The notes under the pieces are model-generated. The model did not search any database and was not told the origin of the DNA. It saw nothing but the letters and a program-made list of their open reading frames with translations. A stretch of DNA of 64,000 nt, from assembly GCA_045545475.1 (NCBI GenBank), contig JAZQAZ010000041.1, forward strand, positions 58,354-122,353, in the 5' to 3' direction. Within the stretch, counting starts at the first letter, position 1. The number at the start of each line of letters is the position of its first letter. Below, piece by piece: positions 5,716 through 54,024 of the stretch. Position numbers and translations under genes: made by a program. Origin of the DNA: Clostridia bacterium. GTDB lineage: Bacteria; Bacillota; Clostridia; CAKSNL01; HGM11501.

Positions 5716-6826
5716 GGTTTTCAATGATTTCAACCCCTCTCTCATTCATTTTAAGAAGTTTATTGTATCTTAAATCAGCCGGAATTTCCTTTAAGGCCAG
5801 GGCACTTTTTCCGTCTGCCGTAAAAAGTCTTACGGTATCAGAAAGAGCTTTCATATCGCAATTGTCATCGTAAAGTATAACTGTATCCACATCAAAAGCT
5901 GCTTCATCTTCTGAAAGAGCGTAAAGAGAATCAAGATAAACGGCAAAACCGATTGCCTCGCTCTTTTTACCCATTTTTTTCATAAGCTTGTCATACTGTC
6001 CGCCGGAAAGAATTCCTGTGGCAATTCCGTTTATAAAGCCTTTAAAAACAAAGCCGTTATAATAATTCATGTCATTTATAACAGAAAAATCTATATTGAT
6101 TTTCCCCTCTAGTCCCGCTTCTTCAAGAGCCATGGTGATTTTTTTAAGCTTTGAAAGGGCCTCAGTTTCTTTGCATAAAAGCCCGGATAACGCAGGCAGA
6201 ACCTTAGAAGGTGCTCCATACAAGGACACAAGTTTCATAAGTGCTGTTCCGTCTATCCCTTCTTTTTTACAAATCTCTCCTATTCCGTGAGCATTCTTTT
6301 CGCCGATGCATTTCAGTATTTCCTTTTCGGCAGATGGATTAACGCCCATATCCGAGAGTATATCGGATATAACCGTGAGATTTGAAATATCAAGAACAAA
6401 ATCATCAGATATTGTTTTAAGGCTCATGGCTGCAAGATAGATAACCTCGTAAACAGAATAGTCATCGGAGTTTCCGATGCACTCAAGCCCCAGTTGCATA
6501 ATTTCCTTAAAAGAATGACTTCCCTTGGAAACTCTGTAAACGTTTTCATTATAATAAAGCTTCTGCACCGAAGTGTCATCCTTGCTGTTTTTTATGATTG
6601 ACAAAGTTACGTCAGGCTTTAATGCCATTAATTTCCCGTCTGTATCCGTAAAGGTGATAATGTGATCGGATATCAAAAAATCCTTATTTCTGACATATAA
6701 ATCATATTCCTCGAACTTACTCATTCTGTAACGGGAATATCCGTATTTCGAATAAAGGCTTCTGAGTGCGAAAACCGCCTTTTCGTCATTTCTTAAAACA
6801 GAATCTTCTATTTTCATTAAAGTCAC
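5708..6826 (-). CDS. hisZ: ATP phosphoribosyltransferase regulatory subunit
   Basis: HisRS-like ALKPDVT, QLGLECIG, YYNGFVF, SGGQYD; adjacent to short hisG. Confidence 0.95.
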   Translation of the reverse strand: MTLMKIEDSVLRNDEKAVFALRSLYSKYGYSRYRMSKFEEYDLYVRNKDFLISDHIITFTDTDGKLMALKPDVTLSIIKNSKDDTSVQKLYYNENVYRVSKGSHSFKEIMQLGLECIGNSDDYSVYEVIYLAAMSLKTISDDFVLDISNLTVISDILSDMGVNPSAEKEILKCIGEKNAHGIGEICKKEGIDGTALMKLVSLYGAPSKVLPALSGLLCKETEALSKLKKITMALEEAGLEGKINIDFSVINDMNYYNGFVFKGFINGIATGILSGGQYDKLMKKMGKKSEAIGFAVYLDSLYALSEDEAAFDVDTVILYDDNCDMKALSDTVRLFTADGKSALALKEIPADLRYNKLLKMNERGVEIIENHA

Positions 6827-47492: not shown

Positions 47493-48716
47493 ATGAATAA
47501 TACAAACCACTTAAAGAAACGCTGGTTTTATCTTGCCGCAGGCGTTTTCGCAATGCTGTTTTCCGGAGTTTTATACGCCTGGTCAATTTTAAAGACACCG
47601 TTTTCCGATAGTTTCGGCTGGACTTCTTCTCATCTTTCTCTTAATTTCACGCTTACCATGTGTTTTTTCTGCATAGGTGCTTTTGCGGGAAGTATCATTT
47701 CAGGAAAAATAGGGCATCGCATCACTCTTATAATTTCCGGTATTCTTGTCGGAGTCGGCTTTATACTGACAGGTCTTTTGAAAAGTGACACCCCTTATCT
47801 TTTGTTTGTAAGCTACGCTCTTTTTGCAGGCAGCGGCATAGGTATTTCATACAATGTAGTGGTTTCCACCGTAAGCTCATGGTTTCCTGATAAGAAGGGG
47901 CTTTGTTCCGGTTGTCTCATGATGGGCTTCGGCATAAGCACCCTCCTCTTGGGCGAAACAATAAACAAGCTTTTTTCCTTTCCCTCAGTCGGATTTGAAA
48001 AAACATTCATTATTCTGGGAGCAGTTATCGCCCTTGTGTTAATTATTTCGGGACTAATAATAAGAAAGCCATCGCAGGACATGATTTTTCCGAAAGGAAA
48101 AGTAAACACGTCTTTAATGGCAGAAGATTTTGAAAGCCGTGATTTTACCACCAAAGAAATGCTTAAGAGCATCTCTTTCTGGAAAGCGTTTTTATGCATA
48201 GTCTTCATTGCAGCACTGGGAAATTCGGTAATCAGCTTTGCAAAAGACCTTGCAATTTCTGTAAATGCAACGCCTTCGCTTGCCACAACACTTGTTGGCG
48301 TTCTTTCAATTTTCAACGGGATAGGAAGAATTTTAACAGGAGCCTTATATGATTCTCTCGGCCGTAAAATCACAATGATTTCTGCCAGCGTATTGACCGT
48401 ATTTGCTGCCGTAACGGCACTTATTGCCGTAAGCATCACATCGCTTCCCCTTTGCATTATTGCATTTTGCTTAATCGGCTTATCCTACGGTTCTTGTCCT
48501 ACCGTTACTTCAGCTTTTACAGCATCGTTTTACGGCAAGAAATATTTTGCAACAAATTACAGCATCAATAATTTCAATCTGATTTTTGCATCCTTTATTG
48601 CAAACGGAAGTAACGCCCTGCTTACTTCCTCAGGCTCTTACGTTTATGCTTTTATAATGCTTCTTTTGCTTTCTGTCATTGCCCTTTTTCTTAATATAAG
48701 CATTAAAAAGCCATAA
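47493..48716 (+). CDS. OFA family MFS transporter
   Basis: G..YAWS, WFPDKKGL.SG, NGIGRI..G...D; promoter TTGAAA-N17-TATAAT. Confidence 0.9.
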   Translation: MNNTNHLKKRWFYLAAGVFAMLFSGVLYAWSILKTPFSDSFGWTSSHLSLNFTLTMCFFCIGAFAGSIISGKIGHRITLIISGILVGVGFILTGLLKSDTPYLLFVSYALFAGSGIGISYNVVVSTVSSWFPDKKGLCSGCLMMGFGISTLLLGETINKLFSFPSVGFEKTFIILGAVIALVLIISGLIIRKPSQDMIFPKGKVNTSLMAEDFESRDFTTKEMLKSISFWKAFLCIVFIAALGNSVISFAKDLAISVNATPSLATTLVGVLSIFNGIGRILTGALYDSLGRKITMISASVLTVFAAVTALIAVSITSLPLCIIAFCLIGLSYGSCPTVTSAFTASFYGKKYFATNYSINNFNLIFASFIANGSNALLTSSGSYVYAFIMLLLLSVIALFLNISIKKP

Positions 48717-48731
48717 AAACCAATACGACAT

Positions 48732-48762
48732 AAAAACCGGCGGAGAATCTCCGCCGGTTTTT
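48732..48762. terminator. Bidirectional terminator
   Basis: AAAAACCGGCGGAG-AAT-CTCCGCCGGTTTTT. Confidence 0.88.
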
Positions 48763-49534
48763 ATTTTTTCTCTATATCGTAGCCTATTTCATCAATCATT
48801 CGCTCAATATCCGCATCCTCCGGATTTTCAGGCAATCTATAATATCTGCATCTGCTGAGAAAATATCTTAAATTATCGTCAATTTCCACATCCCCGACCA
48901 ATACAGGAATAACATTTCCTTTTCGCTTTATGGCATAAGCCACCTCGCTTAACATTTCCGCACTTTTTACCGACTCAGACGTAATCAGTGCCATAACGCA
49001 TCCGTCCCTTGATGCTTCCGTGATTGCATTTGTAATTGTGCTCGCATACGGTTGCCCGGGCATAATATCGTCATAATCAAAAAACACGACATAATCCTTT
49101 TCTTCAAGCTTTTTCTTTATCCTTCCGGCAAGCACAGTATCAAAATATTTTCTTGAATAAGAAATATATACTCTTAGATTGTGAAGGATTTTTTCTATAG
49201 CTTCAATGATAGATTTTTCATCATTAATATCAATGGGGATTATCTTTCTTTTATCGGTCTTCTTTATATACTCCCTTTCAAGTGTAACCCATTTTGATTT
49301 TCTTGAGTTTTCGCTGTCCACAAATATAAACCATTCGCGCGCATCTATTTCACGCTTTATAAGGTCTTCTATTTCGCTGTCGTCATCCAGGCATTTAAGA
49401 TAAAAGCAAAGAGGTTCGAATCCTTTTTCTTCAAGGGCGTTTCTGATAACCCTCACTCTTTCAATATCAGCGTGGGAATGAGAAAGGAAAATATATCCTC
49501 CCTTACCCTTTTTAAGCTTATCAAAAATTCCCAT
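48761..49534 (-). CDS. Tandem TIR-TIR domain protein
   Basis: TIR1 IFLSHS..D...SENS..S.WV..E; TIR2 VYISYS..VFFD...I.PG...SESVKS.....E; ATG 49534; promoter TTGACT-N17-TATAAT at 49635-49607. Confidence 0.85.
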   Translation of the reverse strand: MGIFDKLKKGKGGYIFLSHSHADIERVRVIRNALEEKGFEPLCFYLKCLDDDSEIEDLIKREIDAREWFIFVDSENSRKSKWVTLEREYIKKTDKRKIIPIDINDEKSIIEAIEKILHNLRVYISYSRKYFDTVLAGRIKKKLEEKDYVVFFDYDDIMPGQPYASTITNAITEASRDGCVMALITSESVKSAEMLSEVAYAIKRKGNVIPVLVGDVEIDDNLRYFLSRCRYYRLPENPEDADIERMIDEIGYDIEKK

Positions 49535-49536
49535 AC

Positions 49537-49584
49537 TTACCACCCTTCCTCTGCTTTCAATAATTCAAATAAATCCATTTCCAT
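49537..49584 (-). other. 15-codon upstream ORF or gene remnant (MEMDLFELLKAEEGW)
   Basis: Has its own RBS AGGGGG; stops 2 nt before the TIR-TIR ATG. Confidence 0.4.
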
Positions 49585-49753
49585 ATTCCCCCTACGATTT
49601 TTGTTAATTATATACTTAATTTCATAAAAAGTCAATGATTGCCGGGCAAATGCAAAGCTGCGAAAAATGCCGTATCGCTAAGTTTTATATGAAAACAGCT
49701 AACTTTATCTTGACCGCTTTTGCCGTATATGATATGATTTTACGTGAAAGGAT

Positions 49754-52171
49754 ATGATATGTATGAAAAAGATAAATATATTTCTTGCATCATCCATTAC
49801 TGAATTTAACACCGAACGCATGGATATCGAAAATTTCATCCGTAAAGTGAGCGACAAATTTGAAGACCGTTATGGCGTTAAAATCCAGCCTCTTTTATGC
49901 GAAAATTTCGATGATGCATATACAGTAAAAAGAAAACAGGAAGAATATAACGAACAGATAAGAAAAAGCGATTTTTGCTATTTTATCTTCTTTACCAAGG
50001 TCGGAACTTACACCAGAGAAGAGTTTGACGTTGCAAGAAAGCAATTTGAAGATACCAAGAAACCCAAAATTTACACCTATTTCAAAACTCTTGGCGAAGG
50101 CGACCGTGCCGAGCAAAGCCTATTTGATTTCATGGAAGAGCTTGACAAAACCTTTGGCCATTACTACGGTAATTTTTCGCATATCGATACCTTGAAACTC
50201 CGTATCCTTCTGAATCTTAAGCTTGAAGAAATGAATTTTCTTGAGATAAAAGCCGAAAACGGAAAGTGTGTTGTTGACGGTGCAGATATCCTGCCACTCT
50301 CCAACGTGATGGAATTTGCCAACAACAGCGGACTCCAAAAACTTAATGCAGAGCTTTCGGTGATAGAAAAGGAATATCTTAAGCTTAAACCGCTTTATGC
50401 AAAGGGCGGAAACGATTCTGCGTTTTACAGCAGATACAGCACAGTCGCATCGAAAAGGCAGGCAATAAAAGACGAAATAGACAATCTTCAGAAGCTGATA
50501 TTTGCCGTTTCACTCCGCATGACGGAAGACGATGCCAAAGGAACTATCACAGAACGTCAGAAGGAAGCCTACCGCCTTTTTGAAATGGGAGACTATGAAG
50601 GCTGTATGTCGGTACTTAATTCTGATGATATAGACTCGGATTTTTTAAGAGAACGAAAAAAACTTAAAGAACAAAACGAAGCCGTATGCAGAAAATATAT
50701 AAAAGAGCATAAAACCGCAATAGACATTTTAAGTTCAATGACAGAGTACGACGAACGCTTTAAGGAAATTGGAGAAAGATATGAGAAAATCTTACCGGTA
50801 ATACTTGAAGAAGGCATAGAACTTGATACTGCACTGGAATACGGAAGATATCTTTTAGGCCAGAATTCCGACGAAAAGGCTCTTTCCGTCATAAACACTC
50901 TGCTTCCGCATTGTGATGATAACAAGGTCATTCTTTCCGCTCTTTACAATCTTTCAGGCATCATAAACCAAAACCTCAACAACACGGATAAGGCTGAGGA
51001 ATTTTATCTCAAATCCATCGGATTAAGGGAGGATTTAGCCACAAAAGATCCTGCAAAATTCCGCTCGGAACTGGCTGTAAGTTATAACAACATAAGCATT
51101 TTTTACAAAGACAATAATAATTCCAAAGAAGCCATACGCTACTGCCTTCTTGCAATTTCAATTTATGACGAACTTTCAGACATATATCCCGGAAAATATA
51201 CCGGTGAAACGGCTACAATATACCATAATTCCGGAGTCCTTTTTGATCAGCAGGGAAATCATGAAGATGCAGAAAAATATTTTCTCAAAGCGATAAAACT
51301 TAAAGAAGCTCTTTCAAAAGAAAACCCATTAAAATACAATCCATCACTGGCCCAATCCTATAACAGTGCCGGTCTTTTCTATACAAACCGGGGAAAATAT
51401 GACAAGGCCGAGCCCTACGTTCACTCTGCAATAAAACTTATAAGCGAAGCCGCAAAAACAAATCCGGACAAGTACAATCCTGATCTCGGTGCCATCTATT
51501 TCAACACCGGCATATGTTATGCCAACCAGGGAATAATGGATAAAGCCGAGTCATATTACCACAATGCCATAAGCATTTATGAAACTTTGGCCCAAAATAA
51601 CCCTGCCAAGTTCAGTTCGCTTCTTGTAAGAGTATATAATGCTATAAGTGTATTTTATTCATCCGTAGGCTTAATTTTAGACAGTAGTAAATATGTTAAT
51701 CTTGCCATAGATAAATTAAAACCGCTCTATGAGGAAAATCCGGACAAATTCAGCGAGCTTTTAGCAGAATCCTACGGCAATGCCGGCAATTTACATTCTT
51801 CACTGGGAGATTTTGAAACAGCCGGAAAATACATACTGTCGGGTTTGGAGATTTTCACTTCCCTTGCCGATAAAAATCCCGATAGATTTCTTCCAGGTCT
51901 TGCCAAGGGATATAACAATGCCGCCGTTTTTTACAAAAAACAAAACAAATTCAGCGAGGCTGATTCATACTATAAAAAAGCAATGGAGAAATTCGAGGTG
52001 CTTTCCGAAAAGGACCCTGACTCCTATTTACCCATCCTTGCAATGATAATGTTTAACTACGGCGTTTTCGCCACAGATTACAAAGTCCTTGAAAAGGCTC
52101 TTGCCATTGCCGAAAAATATCCTCAAAATCCCAGATGTCAAAAAATCATTGCCTACTTGGGCCAAAAATAA
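49754..52171 (+). CDS. DUF4062/TIR-like N-terminal domain + helical linker + TPR array protein
   Basis: IFLASS..F..ER, QEEYN..IRKSD..FIF..KVG.YT.EEF..A; repeated LA..YN..G..Y..A..YY..AI TPRs with ~45-aa period; promoter TTGACC-N17-TATGAT. Confidence 0.82.
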   Translation: MICMKKINIFLASSITEFNTERMDIENFIRKVSDKFEDRYGVKIQPLLCENFDDAYTVKRKQEEYNEQIRKSDFCYFIFFTKVGTYTREEFDVARKQFEDTKKPKIYTYFKTLGEGDRAEQSLFDFMEELDKTFGHYYGNFSHIDTLKLRILLNLKLEEMNFLEIKAENGKCVVDGADILPLSNVMEFANNSGLQKLNAELSVIEKEYLKLKPLYAKGGNDSAFYSRYSTVASKRQAIKDEIDNLQKLIFAVSLRMTEDDAKGTITERQKEAYRLFEMGDYEGCMSVLNSDDIDSDFLRERKKLKEQNEAVCRKYIKEHKTAIDILSSMTEYDERFKEIGERYEKILPVILEEGIELDTALEYGRYLLGQNSDEKALSVINTLLPHCDDNKVILSALYNLSGIINQNLNNTDKAEEFYLKSIGLREDLATKDPAKFRSELAVSYNNISIFYKDNNNSKEAIRYCLLAISIYDELSDIYPGKYTGETATIYHNSGVLFDQQGNHEDAEKYFLKAIKLKEALSKENPLKYNPSLAQSYNSAGLFYTNRGKYDKAEPYVHSAIKLISEAAKTNPDKYNPDLGAIYFNTGICYANQGIMDKAESYYHNAISIYETLAQNNPAKFSSLLVRVYNAISVFYSSVGLILDSSKYVNLAIDKLKPLYEENPDKFSELLAESYGNAGNLHSSLGDFETAGKYILSGLEIFTSLADKNPDRFLPGLAKGYNNAAVFYKKQNKFSEADSYYKKAMEKFEVLSEKDPDSYLPILAMIMFNYGVFATDYKVLEKALAIAEKYPQNPRCQKIIAYLGQK

Positions 52172-52240
52172 AAAAACAATTCCACCTTTTTCCTTACATA
52201 AAAATTCCTCACTCGTACAAAATAGATTTGTAAATAAAAA

Positions 52241-52299
52241 CGGAACGGATAAATCCGTTCCCTACGATTAATTTGTAGGGTGTGCATTTATGCACACCG
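52241..52299. repeat. Inverted pair of GTAG-type REP palindromes (REPIN-like)
   Basis: Minus GTAGGGAACGGA-TTTA-TCCGTTCCG (52265-52241) and plus GTAGGGTGTGCA-TTTA-TGCACACCG (52275-52299). Confidence 0.7.
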
Positions 52300-52326
52300 T
52301 TTAAATTAAAGGAGTTAATATATTTA

Positions 52327-52425
52327 TATGAAAGCAACAGGAATTGTAAGAAGAATCGACGACCTTGGTCATGTTGTTATCCCCAAAGAAATAAGAAGAA
52401 CTTTAAAAATCCGTGAGGGCGACCC
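52327..52425 (+). repeat. 99-bp direct repeat, copy 1 (spoVT 5' end)
   Basis: Identical to 53481-53579 except A52371 versus G53525. Confidence 0.95.
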
Positions 52426-52510
52426 CTCTCGTATAACATTGACACCTTTCGACAGGTTTTGTATGGCAGTACATAGCGTGGCGGAAAGATATAAAGGAAC
52501 AGCGGAGTGA
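52328..52510 (+). pseudogene. Truncated spoVT copy: 33 codons of the AbrB-like domain fused to an unrelated tail
   Basis: MKATGIVRRIDDLGHVVIPKEIRRTLKIREGDP then SRITLTPF...; RBS AAAGGAG. Confidence 0.8.
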
Positions 52511-52529
52511 ATTTCACTCCGCTGTTTTT
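52498..52529. terminator. Bidirectional terminator
   Basis: AACAGCGGAGTGAA-T-TTCACTCCGCTGTT. Confidence 0.85.
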
Positions 52530-53353
52530 AGTGCAATCGCCCAATCATAAGGTATTTTTAACTTGCCTTTGCCGATACCAAGTTTTATATCTGGTTTGTT
52601 TTCTCCGTGGAAATCACTTCCACCGCTATATTTTAATTCGAATTCTTTAGCTAATTCAACAGCTTCTTTGGTGGCCGTTGTGCTATAGAGCGAATAATAA
52701 CACTCCATTCCAACTAATCCTTGTTTTTTTGCTAACGGCAAAAGAATTTCCAACTCATCTTTTGTTAAATTTAGAAAAGGATGTGCCAATACGGGTGTTG
52801 CACCAATTGATTTTATAAAATCAATCATTTCAAAGAGACATAATCTTTGGGGCTCTTTGTAATGACCTGAGGAAGGTGATAATAGTGTGTCAAACGCTTC
52901 TTTTATCGAAGAGGTATACCCTTTTTTTGTTAACTCAGCGGCTATATGTGCACGGTTAAACTTTCCATTTGGCGTAGAACCTTTTATCGTATCATAGTGT
53001 ATTTTATATCCCGCTCGATTTAGGGACTCTATTAAAGCTATGTTGCTTTGTCGCTTTTTTTCGTTCACATCATTCATCAAATCAGCAACTTTATCAAAGT
53101 TCTTTTCAGGAATATAAAGACCTAAAAGATGCAGTTCTGTTCCGTTGTAGTCAACCGAAAACTCTGCACCTGCAATCGGTTGAATGTTTTTATTATTGGC
53201 AGCTGCTAAAAAATCGTGTAACCCATCCACTGTGTTATGGTCACACAATGCAACGGCTGATAAACCGATATTAACTGCTGAATCTATAATTTCTTCTGGG
53301 GTATATGTTCCGTCAGAATAAATTGAATGAGTATGTAAATCACAAGTTTTCAT
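52514..53353 (-). CDS. PHP domain phosphoesterase (TrpH/YciV-like)
   Basis: DLHTHS.YSDG, CDHN, GAE, HLLG, LAHP, GGSDFHG; ATG 53353 after GGAGG. Confidence 0.93.
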   Translation of the reverse strand: MKTCDLHTHSIYSDGTYTPEEIIDSAVNIGLSAVALCDHNTVDGLHDFLAAANNKNIQPIAGAEFSVDYNGTELHLLGLYIPEKNFDKVADLMNDVNEKKRQSNIALIESLNRAGYKIHYDTIKGSTPNGKFNRAHIAAELTKKGYTSSIKEAFDTLLSPSSGHYKEPQRLCLFEMIDFIKSIGATPVLAHPFLNLTKDELEILLPLAKKQGLVGMECYYSLYSTTATKEAVELAKEFELKYSGGSDFHGENKPDIKLGIGKGKLKIPYDWAIALKTAE

Positions 53354-53412
53354 ATTCAAACCTCCGCCTTTAATTTATTATATCACAATCAATCAAAAAA
53401 ATCAATGCCAAT

Positions 53413-53442
53413 AGTATAAATCTCATCCATTTGCAGATACTA
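53413..53442 (+). promoter_or_regulatory. Putative forespore SigG/SigF promoter of spoVT
   Basis: GTATA-N18-GATACTA upstream of the RBS AAGGAG. Confidence 0.55.
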
Positions 53443-53481
53443 ACAGTACAAATCTGTAAAACAAGGAGATTATATATATCT

Positions 53482-54024
53482 ATGAAAGCAACAGGAATTG
53501 TAAGAAGAATCGACGACCTTGGTCGTGTTGTTATCCCCAAAGAAATAAGAAGAACTTTAAAAATCCGTGAGGGCGACCCGCTGGAAATTTATACCAACGC
53601 TTCAGGCGAGGTAATTTTCAAAAAGTACTCCCCCATCGGAGAGCTTTCGGAATTTGCCTCAACTTATGCCGAAACCTTATCCAAAACCTCAGGACGCCCT
53701 GTTTGCATAACAGACAAGGACAATGTAATTGCGGTCTACGGCATTCCCAAAAAGGAGCTTGCCGAAAAGAAATTGAGTCCCGAGCTTGAGCAATTAATAA
53801 CAGAACGTACCCGCTTTGTTATGAAACCCGGGCAGATAAAGCGATGTGAAATCGCCGACGGAACGGACAAATACTTAGCAGGTGTAGTTATGCCTATAAT
53901 ATCAGAAGGCGATCCCGTAGGTTCTGTTGTAATGATGGATGACGGAAATTCCGAAATACGCGAAATTGACGAAAAGCTGGCAGAATCCGCCGCAGGCTTT
54001 TTAGGTAAGCAAATGGAAATATAA
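53482..54024 (+). CDS. spoVT: Stage V sporulation protein T
   Basis: MKATGIVRRIDDLGRVVIPKEIRRTL.IREGDPLEI..KKYSPIGEL + GAF-like C-domain ending AAGFLGKQM. Confidence 0.97.
   Translation: MKATGIVRRIDDLGRVVIPKEIRRTLKIREGDPLEIYTNASGEVIFKKYSPIGELSEFASTYAETLSKTSGRPVCITDKDNVIAVYGIPKKELAEKKLSPELEQLITERTRFVMKPGQIKRCEIADGTDKYLAGVVMPIISEGDPVGSVVMMDDGNSEIREIDEKLAESAAGFLGKQMEI

Follow-up and report, generated by a model that had tools for sequence, protein, structure and literature searches.

Two divergently oriented genes lying between positions 48,761 and 52,171 of a 64,000-nucleotide stretch of Clostridia bacterium DNA (assembly GCA_045545475.1, contig JAZQAZ010000041.1, positions 58,354 to 122,353; the whole stretch is referred to below as the window) encode a protein composed of two TIR domains (TIR-TIR) and a large protein (NIR-TPR), in which a predicted TIR-like domain of the DUF4062/NIR type is connected via a helical stalk with an array of tetratricopeptide repeats (TPRs). 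An earlier note on this DNA took them for one undescribed two-gene anti-phage system. On balance we lean towards another explanation, namely that they are two independent single-gene immune-type modules directed at nicotinamide adenine dinucleotide (NAD), standing side by side as recurrent cargo of a variable site upstream of the gene spoVT.

Co-occurrence was followed at 13 TIR-TIR loci, comprising 12 full-length orthologues (one genome per species, up to 7 kb on each side) and one found by the search among relatives, with 41-65% identity of the orthologues. The N-terminal domain of NIR-TPR, the small beta-hairpin unit behind it and the stalk are conserved together as one module of 350 amino acids (aa), hereafter the N-module, which served as the query from the side of the larger gene. 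The pair is not a conserved system, since tblastn with the N-module found no partner within the available flanks at any of the 13 loci, the very outcome that the earlier note had named as speaking against its proposal, since homologues of the module occur in 2 of the 13 TIR-TIR genomes, distant (33-34% identity) and on other contigs, with none in the remaining 11 for this query, and since G314, the searchable genome with the closest N-module homologue (70% identity), has no TIR-TIR orthologue, its TIR matches being weak and confined to open reading frames (ORFs) of 830 and 665 aa. N-module genes without TIR-TIR are likewise present in G404, G409, G877, G1036 and G795. Five further N-module loci gave no TIR-TIR match, and no TIR family of Pfam was matched in the 40 of their 64 neighbouring ORFs that were scanned; the metagenome scan with the N-module yielded 7 loci from 590 pattern matches, which limits the co-occurrence test from this side. 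In the all-versus-all comparison of 123 neighbouring ORFs from the 13 loci, the single family common to more than two loci, found in three of them, was spoVT. Both genes are accessory, and 11 other genomes of the genus contain no orthologue of either.

Of all promoter-like sites in the region, the two best lie within the 210-bp intergenic stretch shared by the two genes. The site assigned to TIR-TIR (49607-49635, minus strand; TTGACT-17-TATAAT) agrees with consensus in 11 of 12 positions and is kept at the orthologue loci L010, L011, L012 and L019, and that of the NIR-TPR gene (49710-49738, plus strand; TTGACC-17-TATGAT with TG) agrees in 10 of 12. To this extent the near-consensus SigA promoters proposed previously are supported, although over the whole region the number of such matches shows no excess (15 found versus 13.2 ± 3.5 in shuffled sequences).

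The NIR-TPR protein and its relatives

The reading frame of NIR-TPR (49754-52171, plus strand) was confirmed to be open over 805 aa; its true start is probably three codons further in, at ATG 49763, giving 802 aa, as orthologues open with MKKIKIF and the representative of its own cluster has 802 aa. The TIR-like domain occupies 49763-50239 (residues 4-162) and contains the candidate catalytic E90 in GTYTREEF. The segment 50240-50803 encodes the beta-hairpin unit (residues 165-181) and the long helical stalk (192-346), and the segment 50804-52168 the variable TPR array, a putative sensor, with Pfam TPR families spanning approximately residues 360-800. The AlphaFold2 (AF2) model, with a predicted local distance difference test (pLDDT) score of 88, places a five-strand beta-alpha domain at residues 5-158, strands at 165-181 and helices at 192-346. 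The protein contains no Walker A motif, and searches with Pfam, NCBIfam and PADLOC gave no NTPase domain. Signal-receptor domains, whether ThsA-like, SLOG, Macro or of another type, were likewise not found with Pfam. The architecture outlined in the earlier note, with a TIR/DUF4062-like N-domain retaining glutamate, a helical linker, TPRs and no P-loop, is therefore upheld.

Direct matches of the N-domain to the DUF4062 family (PF13271) are weak, with an E-value of 0.22 for the full protein and 0.041 for its first 350 aa, and 21 of 33 members of the N-module family match it at E ≤ 1 (best 2.1e-4). Comparison of profiles is more telling. Aligned by hhalign with 16 bona fide PF13271 domains, which exceed the Pfam cut-off and were drawn from 14 of 301 genomes of the phylum, the N-domain profile scored a probability of 94.2% (E 1.2e-7, 132 columns), versus less than 1% with the two TIR domains of the neighbouring gene; as a yardstick, these two TIR domains scored 94.8% against each other. 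E90 of the YTREEF stretch shows no exception in either alignment (33 of 33 and 6 of 6 sequences), and E90-F91 aligns with E-Y of the 'SYTExEY' stretch in DUF4062, where the profile reads SYTEKEY. Structural comparison of residues 3-162 by VIA-align (about 115-135 residues aligned) returned TIR domains and nucleoside deoxyribosyltransferase/CMP hydrolase folds with Z from 12.6 to 9.8, in particular TIRAP (Z 12.6, root-mean-square deviation 3.3, 135 aligned), the CMP hydrolase MilB (12.0), the TIR domains of SfSTING (11.7) and SARM1 (10.5), and ThsB (9.8). Foldseek with the N-module model was ambiguous, giving generic flavodoxin-like and GTPase matches; the search of PDB by sequence gave no meaningful match for the N-module; and the top cluster in a protein atlas (score 0.94), with DUF4062 on 24% of its members, was taken as a lead only. 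Because of the profile match, the aligned catalytic glutamate, the sub-threshold PF13271 matches and the TIR/nucleoside deoxyribosyltransferase fold, the N-domain is regarded as homologous to DUF4062 and, judging from its sequence, is a divergent DUF4062/NIR domain. A second DUF4062 domain, which at 37.8 bits exceeds the Pfam cut-off, is encoded in the same genome (G000:C44:82252-82548, minus strand, locus L048), where it opens an ORF of 1433 aa and carries DLRWG and GDRYGW motifs.

The N-module family is large yet patchy. The first 350 residues correspond to 223 clusters at 90% identity, and a profile of six N-modules recovers 3678 representatives at E ≤ 1e-3, 2394 at 1e-10 and 800 at 1e-30, mostly from gut and rumen Clostridia; in the genome samples searched, the module is present in 2 of 399, 5 of 401, 1 of 25 and 1 of 14 genomes. 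None of 29 candidate stretches in viral contigs proved to be a relative. Over 119 family members the median identity is 59% for the N-module (first 350 residues) versus 32% for the TPR part, the tail behind the module varying in length from 103 to 1029 aa and in one member containing leucine-rich repeats (LRRs) in the position of TPRs. N-terminal extensions were found in 6 of the top 150 representatives: P0336 has the chain TIR_2, N-module and TPR; P0309 and P0338 show a weak PF13271 match on a further domain ahead of the N-module; P0289, P0304 and P0352 bear extensions of 155-170 aa without Pfam match, although P0289 and P0309 are alike in sequence. In P0309 and P0289 the domain adjacent to the stalk is devoid of the YTxEE motif. 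A degraded gene at L028:5727-7355, frameshifted near 6000, begins with 93 aa of TIR_2/ThsB_TIR type, continues as residues 130-279 of the N-module and ends with TPR fragments; the same partial match was seen in four contigs, and its composition suggests that TIR_2 and NIR-like domains have been swapped on the same stalk. Such chains, having a TIR_2 or DUF4062-like domain ahead of the N-module, and the degraded TIR_2-N-module gene may be considered as natural domain experiments within the family.

The effector type that had appeared to belong to an unnamed architecture has since received a name, and a NADase function of the NIR/DUF4062 domain has been in the literature only since 2026. According to the main texts of three preprints of that year, one of which renames DUF4062 NIR, this domain is a TIR-like NADase effector in phage defence, found in the single-protein systems Swarozyc, Evangelion and Vulcan, and every bacterial DUF4062/NIR protein tested in them defended against phage (Osinski et al., bioRxiv 10.64898/2026.05.01.722283; Ibarra-Chavez et al., bioRxiv 10.64898/2026.06.25.731849; Le Mouellic et al., bioRxiv 10.64898/2026.09.04.749371). 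As described there, the TIR-like domain of the Swarozyc protein KpSwz, with catalytic E97, is followed by an intertwined small beta-sheet and by helical stalks, and the phage portal is bound by an auxiliary domain (10.64898/2026.05.01.722283); Evangelion Eva01 possesses F11, E87-Y88 and a variable AUX region (10.64898/2026.06.25.731849); and the third group describes Avs2-NIR, Vesta and Vulcan, the latter being NIR fused directly to HEAT repeats, with E98 (10.64898/2026.09.04.749371). In KpSwz, Eva01 and Vulcan alike the glutamate that E90 corresponds to is the one designated as catalytic. The three sets were collected by different means: Osinski et al. took DUF4062 as the starting point of sequence and structure searches (10.64898/2026.05.01.722283), Ibarra-Chavez et al. 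analysed proteins containing PF13271 (10.64898/2026.06.25.731849) and Le Mouellic et al. made their own hidden Markov model from one Avs protein (10.64898/2026.09.04.749371).

Against this background the 805-aa protein is assigned, by domain order and homology, as a TPR-sensor variant of the recently named NIR/DUF4062 single-protein NADase systems. Its order of DUF4062 TIR-like domain, small beta unit, helical stalk and C-terminal sensor, here taken from a monomer model by AF2, is like that of KpSwz as described, a single-gene system with glutamate-dependent NADase; however, the portal-binding auxiliary domain of KpSwz, for which no fold is recognised, stands where a TPR array is found here. 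For KpSwz an intertwined dimer and a 'bouquet' oligomer are described. In the likeness to Vulcan, which is one of architecture and not of sequence comparison, both are single proteins with an N-terminal NIR/DUF4062 domain and C-terminal helical repeats and no STAND NTPase, and the candidate E90 may be set beside E98. Nevertheless, the repeats of Vulcan are reported as HEAT and not TPR, its fusion is direct and not mediated by about 190 aa of beta-hairpin and helical stalk, its host is Enterobacter and not a gut member of the Clostridia, and by comparison with it the N-domain described here falls below the Pfam cut-off, has KVG instead of RYG and a shorter loop. Eva01 differs in the compact AUX region and in being plasmid-borne in staphylococci and linked to replication sensing, according to its description, while the present protein has a long TPR array in a chromosomal hotspot. 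Avs and other NLR-like proteins with NIR or TIR effectors resemble it in combining an effector with a C-terminal repeat sensor, TPRs being known to sense phage proteins, but they have a STAND/P-loop NTPase, which the lack of Walker A and of any NTPase match sets apart from the 805-aa protein. The main texts of the three preprints mention no NTPase-free TPR fusion, and their supplementary trees or tables may already include NIR-TPR fusions from Clostridia; the words 'TPR' and 'tetratricopeptide' are absent from the main texts of Osinski et al. and Ibarra-Chavez et al. and in that of Le Mouellic et al. appear as abbreviations in two figure legends only. Surveys relying on the Pfam cut-off may have missed this large branch with TPRs, sometimes LRRs, and a conserved stalk.

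A sensor-effector reading of NIR-TPR is suggested because the conserved N-module contrasts with the variable TPR part of changing length, in a family that is large and patchy. By analogy with Swarozyc and Vulcan, the stalk would keep the resting protein in an autoinhibited oligomeric state; on binding of a phage protein by the TPR array, the ensuing rearrangement would open the active site of the NIR domain, and NAD+ would be hydrolysed so that the infected cell stops growing. From the earlier idea of a TPR sensor activating a TIR effector there remains a repeat sensor joined to a TIR-like effector within the large protein itself, while its union with TIR-TIR in one system is not supported.

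The tandem TIR protein

TIR-TIR is encoded by an ORF of 260 aa, confirmed to be open (48761-49543, minus strand), which begins with GTG 49543; its true start lies probably three codons in, at ATG 49534, giving 257 aa, since orthologues open with MGFFDKL and the own-cluster representative is of this length. The N-terminal TIR domain (N-TIR; 49190-49504, minus strand, residues 14-118) is ThsB-like and nearly invariant, with the candidate catalytic E89, and the C-terminal one (C-TIR; 48764-49189, minus strand, residues 119-260) is variable, is of TIR_2 type (Pfam TIR_2 on residues 125-248) and has E200. TIR_2 matches the protein in two stretches (E 3.9e-31), ThsB_TIR matches residues 19-110 (E 1.5e-6) and PADLOC models of ThsB match N-TIR (best E 2.7e-14). 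The AF2 model has pLDDT 90 and a predicted template modelling (pTM) score of 0.88. Of the 30 family members aligned, all have E89 of WVTLE and 28 have E200 of MLSE, so that the description of a protein made only of two TIR domains, both with glutamate, holds good. The family comprises 393 clusters at 90% identity, and its mean pairwise identity amounts to 75.5% in N-TIR versus 45.9% in C-TIR. With TIR-TIR as the query, PDB returned by sequence generic TIR chains only (E 1e-4 or weaker), Foldseek with the model gave generic TIR matches, and viral contigs gave only three partial matches of 35 residues.

N-TIR resembles ThsB of Thoeris, with modest scores for ThsB_TIR and the PADLOC models of ThsB and with glutamate kept, but TIR-TIR differs from ThsB in having two TIR domains within one chain, and no gene for a ThsA-type effector adjoins it here or is conserved beside the 13 orthologues. 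Assignment to a Thoeris operon was ruled out by the lack of a ThsA-like partner both in the window and, as a conserved one, at the orthologue loci; for the type III Thoeris model ThcB4 of NCBIfam the protein scores 28.6 bits with a cut-off of 220. Stand-alone TIR NADases without partner genes are an established kind, exemplified by SpbK of Bacillus subtilis, which is reported to be a TIR-domain protein interacting with the phage protein YonE (PMC12847820); the likeness considered here is that of the TIR domain, and the protein described here consists of two TIR domains only. In the available portion of the literature on tandem or two TIR domains in a bacterial or phage context no bacterial protein of two TIR domains only is described. 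TIR-TIR thus appears to be a stand-alone tandem TIR protein, undescribed but unsurprising. N-TIR, being ThsB-like and nearly invariant with its E89, is likely the catalytic unit, and the fast-evolving C-TIR may be its regulatory or trigger-binding partner, perhaps providing in cis the second TIR domain required by active TIR assemblies. Proteins of this kind may serve as a compact model for studying the control of catalysis by paired TIR domains within a single chain.

The variable site upstream of spoVT

Both genes lie within a stretch (48713-53440) which has no nucleotide match in 11 other genomes of the genus and is bounded by the gene for an MFS transporter and spoVT (53482-54024, plus strand), the latter being the conserved anchor of the variable region. 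In G010 the distance from the end of the MFS gene to spoVT is about 77 bp, and a sequence of 28 nt corresponding to 52182-52209 is the only content in between; other members of the genus carry different cargo, including metabolic genes, at the same place. In G004, of the same genus, this is a different gene encoding an 890-aa TIR_2-Sel1-TPR protein (L040:908-3580), divergent from spoVT, and only its TPR part resembles the 805-aa protein. For TIR-TIR, spoVT or its short derivative, mini-spoVT, is found 0.1-5.4 kb away at 5 of 13 loci: TIR-TIR is divergent from spoVT at a distance of 128 bp in L010, stands in L011 between two 35-codon copies of the 5′ end of spoVT, the complete gene being 1.1 kb distant, stands 270 bp from a 5′ copy in L019, and 4.4 and 5.4 kb from spoVT in L013 and L012, respectively. 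For NIR-TPR, the N-module gene is located directly upstream of spoVT and codirected with it at three of nine loci having downstream sequence, namely in the window, in G314 (70% identity) and in G409 (34%). Consequently, the variable site upstream of spoVT is one at which both genes recur as cargo, and this suffices to explain their adjacency; more generally, proximity of two immune-looking genes can reflect a shared insertion hotspot and not a shared function.

The most interesting by-product of the analysis is the organization of this site, with cassettes anchored at spoVT and conserved mini-SpoVT genes. What was regarded as a remnant of spoVT duplication is a conserved gene of 60 aa (52328-52510, plus strand; AbrB/MazE-like, PF04014), which is almost identical to spoVT over its first 33 codons and has a conserved tail of its own. 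Its family includes at least 120 clusters of 55-91 aa, mostly 57-60 aa, with 77-93% identity, and some of the clusters are named 'stage V sporulation protein T' by their source. A direct repeat of 117 nt, with copy 1 at 52309-52425 (plus strand) and copy 2, 96% identical, at 53463-53579, brackets the gene of a PHP-domain protein (52514-53359, minus strand), the cargo that separates mini-spoVT from spoVT. Its spacing is 1154 nt. Single genes elsewhere are likewise enclosed by direct repeats derived from the 5′ end of spoVT, namely TIR-TIR at L010:6842-8008 (71 nt, spacing 1096 nt) and at L011:5804-8043 (182 nt, spacings 952 and 1106 nt). The conserved ACAGATACTAACA motif seen upstream of spoVT is also part of the units repeated in L010 and L011; the mini-SpoVT tail and a terminator hairpin are conserved in L011, as is the succession of a hairpin and CTTTATATC between the window and this locus. 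No recombinase gene was encountered among the ORFs scanned from 30393 to the end of the window. As a tentative proposal with a rather small chance of being right, the stretch upstream of spoVT in gut Clostridia would be an undescribed gene-capture site, where single-gene cassettes of about 1.1 kb are bracketed by copies of the spoVT 5′ end that persist as mini-SpoVT genes with a conserved terminator hairpin. The cassettes would carry PHP in the window and TIR-TIR or a 188-aa ORF elsewhere; the preferred cargo would be immune genes of the TIR family (TIR-TIR, NIR-TPR and TIR-Sel1-TPR), and control of the spoVT type could couple immunity to sporulation.

The 'REP doublet' reported next to the pair consists of two hairpins, 52242-52261 and 52279-52298, the part recurring on other contigs and in relatives being about 52232-52273, over 25-40 nt; this segment and 52182-52209 are found again in the same genome (C30, C40) and in its relatives with 85-100% identity over such lengths. 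In four gut metagenome runs the summed depth over 52180-52463 and 53316-53599 was 10-40 times that of the flanks (836 versus about 19 in X1), evidently since many organisms in the samples share the very conserved 5′ stretch of spoVT. Contig joints skipping mini-spoVT and PHP (52208>53482, 52405>53608 and 52511>53358) were set aside, as their sides did not exceed 33 letters at 90% likeness and may come from spoVT copies of other organisms.

Weighing of the explanations

Several observations weigh against the preferred interpretation of two independent immune-type modules. There is no classic defence island around them, about ten genes on each side being sporulation, NAD synthase, transporter and cell-wall genes. 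As to enrichment in defence genes, which the earlier note suggested checking, credible defence-type matches came up at only 3 of 13 TIR-TIR loci (PDC-M42 in L016, mad3/8 in L020 and CARF-PDDEXK in L021), as scanned in 100 of 123 ORFs, leaving out the 13 TIR-TIR genes and 10 ORFs mostly at locus ends, and no defence-type Pfam family was found among 40 neighbours at the five further N-module loci. PADLOC (2023) gave weak matches of ThsB models for TIR-TIR and a TPR-only match for the large protein, naming no system for either. The N-domain remains below the gathering cut-off of Pfam DUF4062 (24.7 bits) with 12.2 bits for the full protein, 14.5 for 350 aa and 16.2 in six-frame search, and for both families NADase activity, phage sensing and abortive infection are ascribed by reasoning from sequence. 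Against independence in particular, flanks are short at some loci (115 bp upstream in L002, 880 bp in L021), where a partner could be missed, and some facts favour a link of TIR genes with the N-module: contigs from four metagenome runs, each of a different study, show TIR-TIR next to NIR-TPR in this species, albeit in one lineage; P0336 fuses TIR_2 ahead of the N-module; and an island type of the human gut (L024/L025, L028/L029) packs several other TIR genes round N-module genes. With the context of defence being weak, the defence reading draws on homology and architecture, on the variability of the sensor and on a distribution that is patchy and tied to hotspots, which together point to a putative immune role. 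Matches resembling DnaG and, partially, MzaA in L013, DEDDh in a 1386-aa ORF of L017 taken for a polymerase, and a beta-galactosidase-like stretch in L012 were rejected as likely housekeeping from the matches alone, all of them partial or single-domain matches by PADLOC.

Dependence between the two products could take either of two forms. In an obligate system the TPR protein would sense phage and activate or signal to the TIR-TIR NADase, or the reverse as in Thoeris; the divergent arrangement over 210 bp with two strong promoter-like sites, the location of both genes within the stretch missing from genus relatives and the adjacency kept in four metagenome runs agree with this. The contigs of these runs are about 99% identical and so represent the same lineage and not independent cases, with the MFS and PHP parts thinly covered or uncovered. 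Such a system appears improbable given that the partner is found at none of the 13 TIR-TIR loci, that 11 of 13 genomes are devoid of any N-module homologue detectable with this query, that six genomes contain the N-module without TIR-TIR, and that the large protein has no signal-receptor domain among those looked for and has an effector domain of its own with an invariant candidate catalytic glutamate. Somewhat less improbable, yet still unlikely, is facultative cooperation, in which NIR-TPR would recruit or co-assemble with other TIR-fold proteins and neighbouring TIR genes would modulate or widen the response without being obligatory. It could account for the N-terminal extensions in 6 of the top 150 representatives, including the TIR_2 fusion P0336, and for the islands L024/L025 and L028/L029, where four other TIR genes stand beside N-module genes. 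But TIR genes occur near N-module genes at only 2 of 9 loci, those TIRs are related to TIR-TIR by the generic domain only (BLASTP E 0.002 for P0336 and 0.065 for the two-TIR protein of L028), and mere clustering of immune genes would look alike. The islands, L024, L025, L028 and L029, comprise TIR-Sel1, a 502-aa protein with two TIR_2 stretches, a TIR of CAP12/Pycsar type, a 339-aa TIR and an asparaginase-like gene together with one or two N-module genes, and IS1595 and Mu-type transposases are nearby. The asparaginase-like gene (PF00710, N-terminal domain only) is found no more than 2.5 kb from N-module genes at two unrelated loci (L033:4799-5839 and L024:9927-10940).

Two further explanations dispense with general phage defence. 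Recurrence of the spoVT-adjacent location in distant genomes, the divergent position of TIR-TIR 128 bp from spoVT in L010 and the ACAGATACTAACA motif in the repeat units of L010 and L011 would be expected if the products act in forespore or spore, for instance in NAD turnover or protection at the spore stage. This is very improbable: the distribution is patchy, with about 1% or less of the sampled genomes and no orthologues in the 11 other genomes of the genus, and therefore is at odds with a core role in sporulation, 8 of 13 TIR-TIR and 6 of 9 N-module loci are away from spoVT, both genes have sigma-A-like promoters of their own, and in other members of the genus metabolic genes occupy this spot. 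Some bacterial TIR proteins, among them TcpB, TirS and AbTir, are discussed as host-directed factors, and a non-immune role in host signalling or in housekeeping nucleotide metabolism could be imagined for gut-bacterial TIR proteins. The sequence occurs in animal gut metagenomes, with no RNA dataset among those listed for the region, and nadE, encoding NAD synthase (PF02540; 46594-47334, minus strand), lies 1.4 kb from the two putative NADase genes. The gene is kept in relatives of the genus, and its proximity is probably a coincidence. We give this explanation hardly any credence: no secretion-related Pfam domain was found, with no search made by a signal-peptide predictor, a variable repeat array on a conserved effector along with patchy hotspot-borne distribution is typical of immune genes, and the bacterial DUF4062/NIR proteins tested in the preprints, as far as their main texts go, were all protective against phage.

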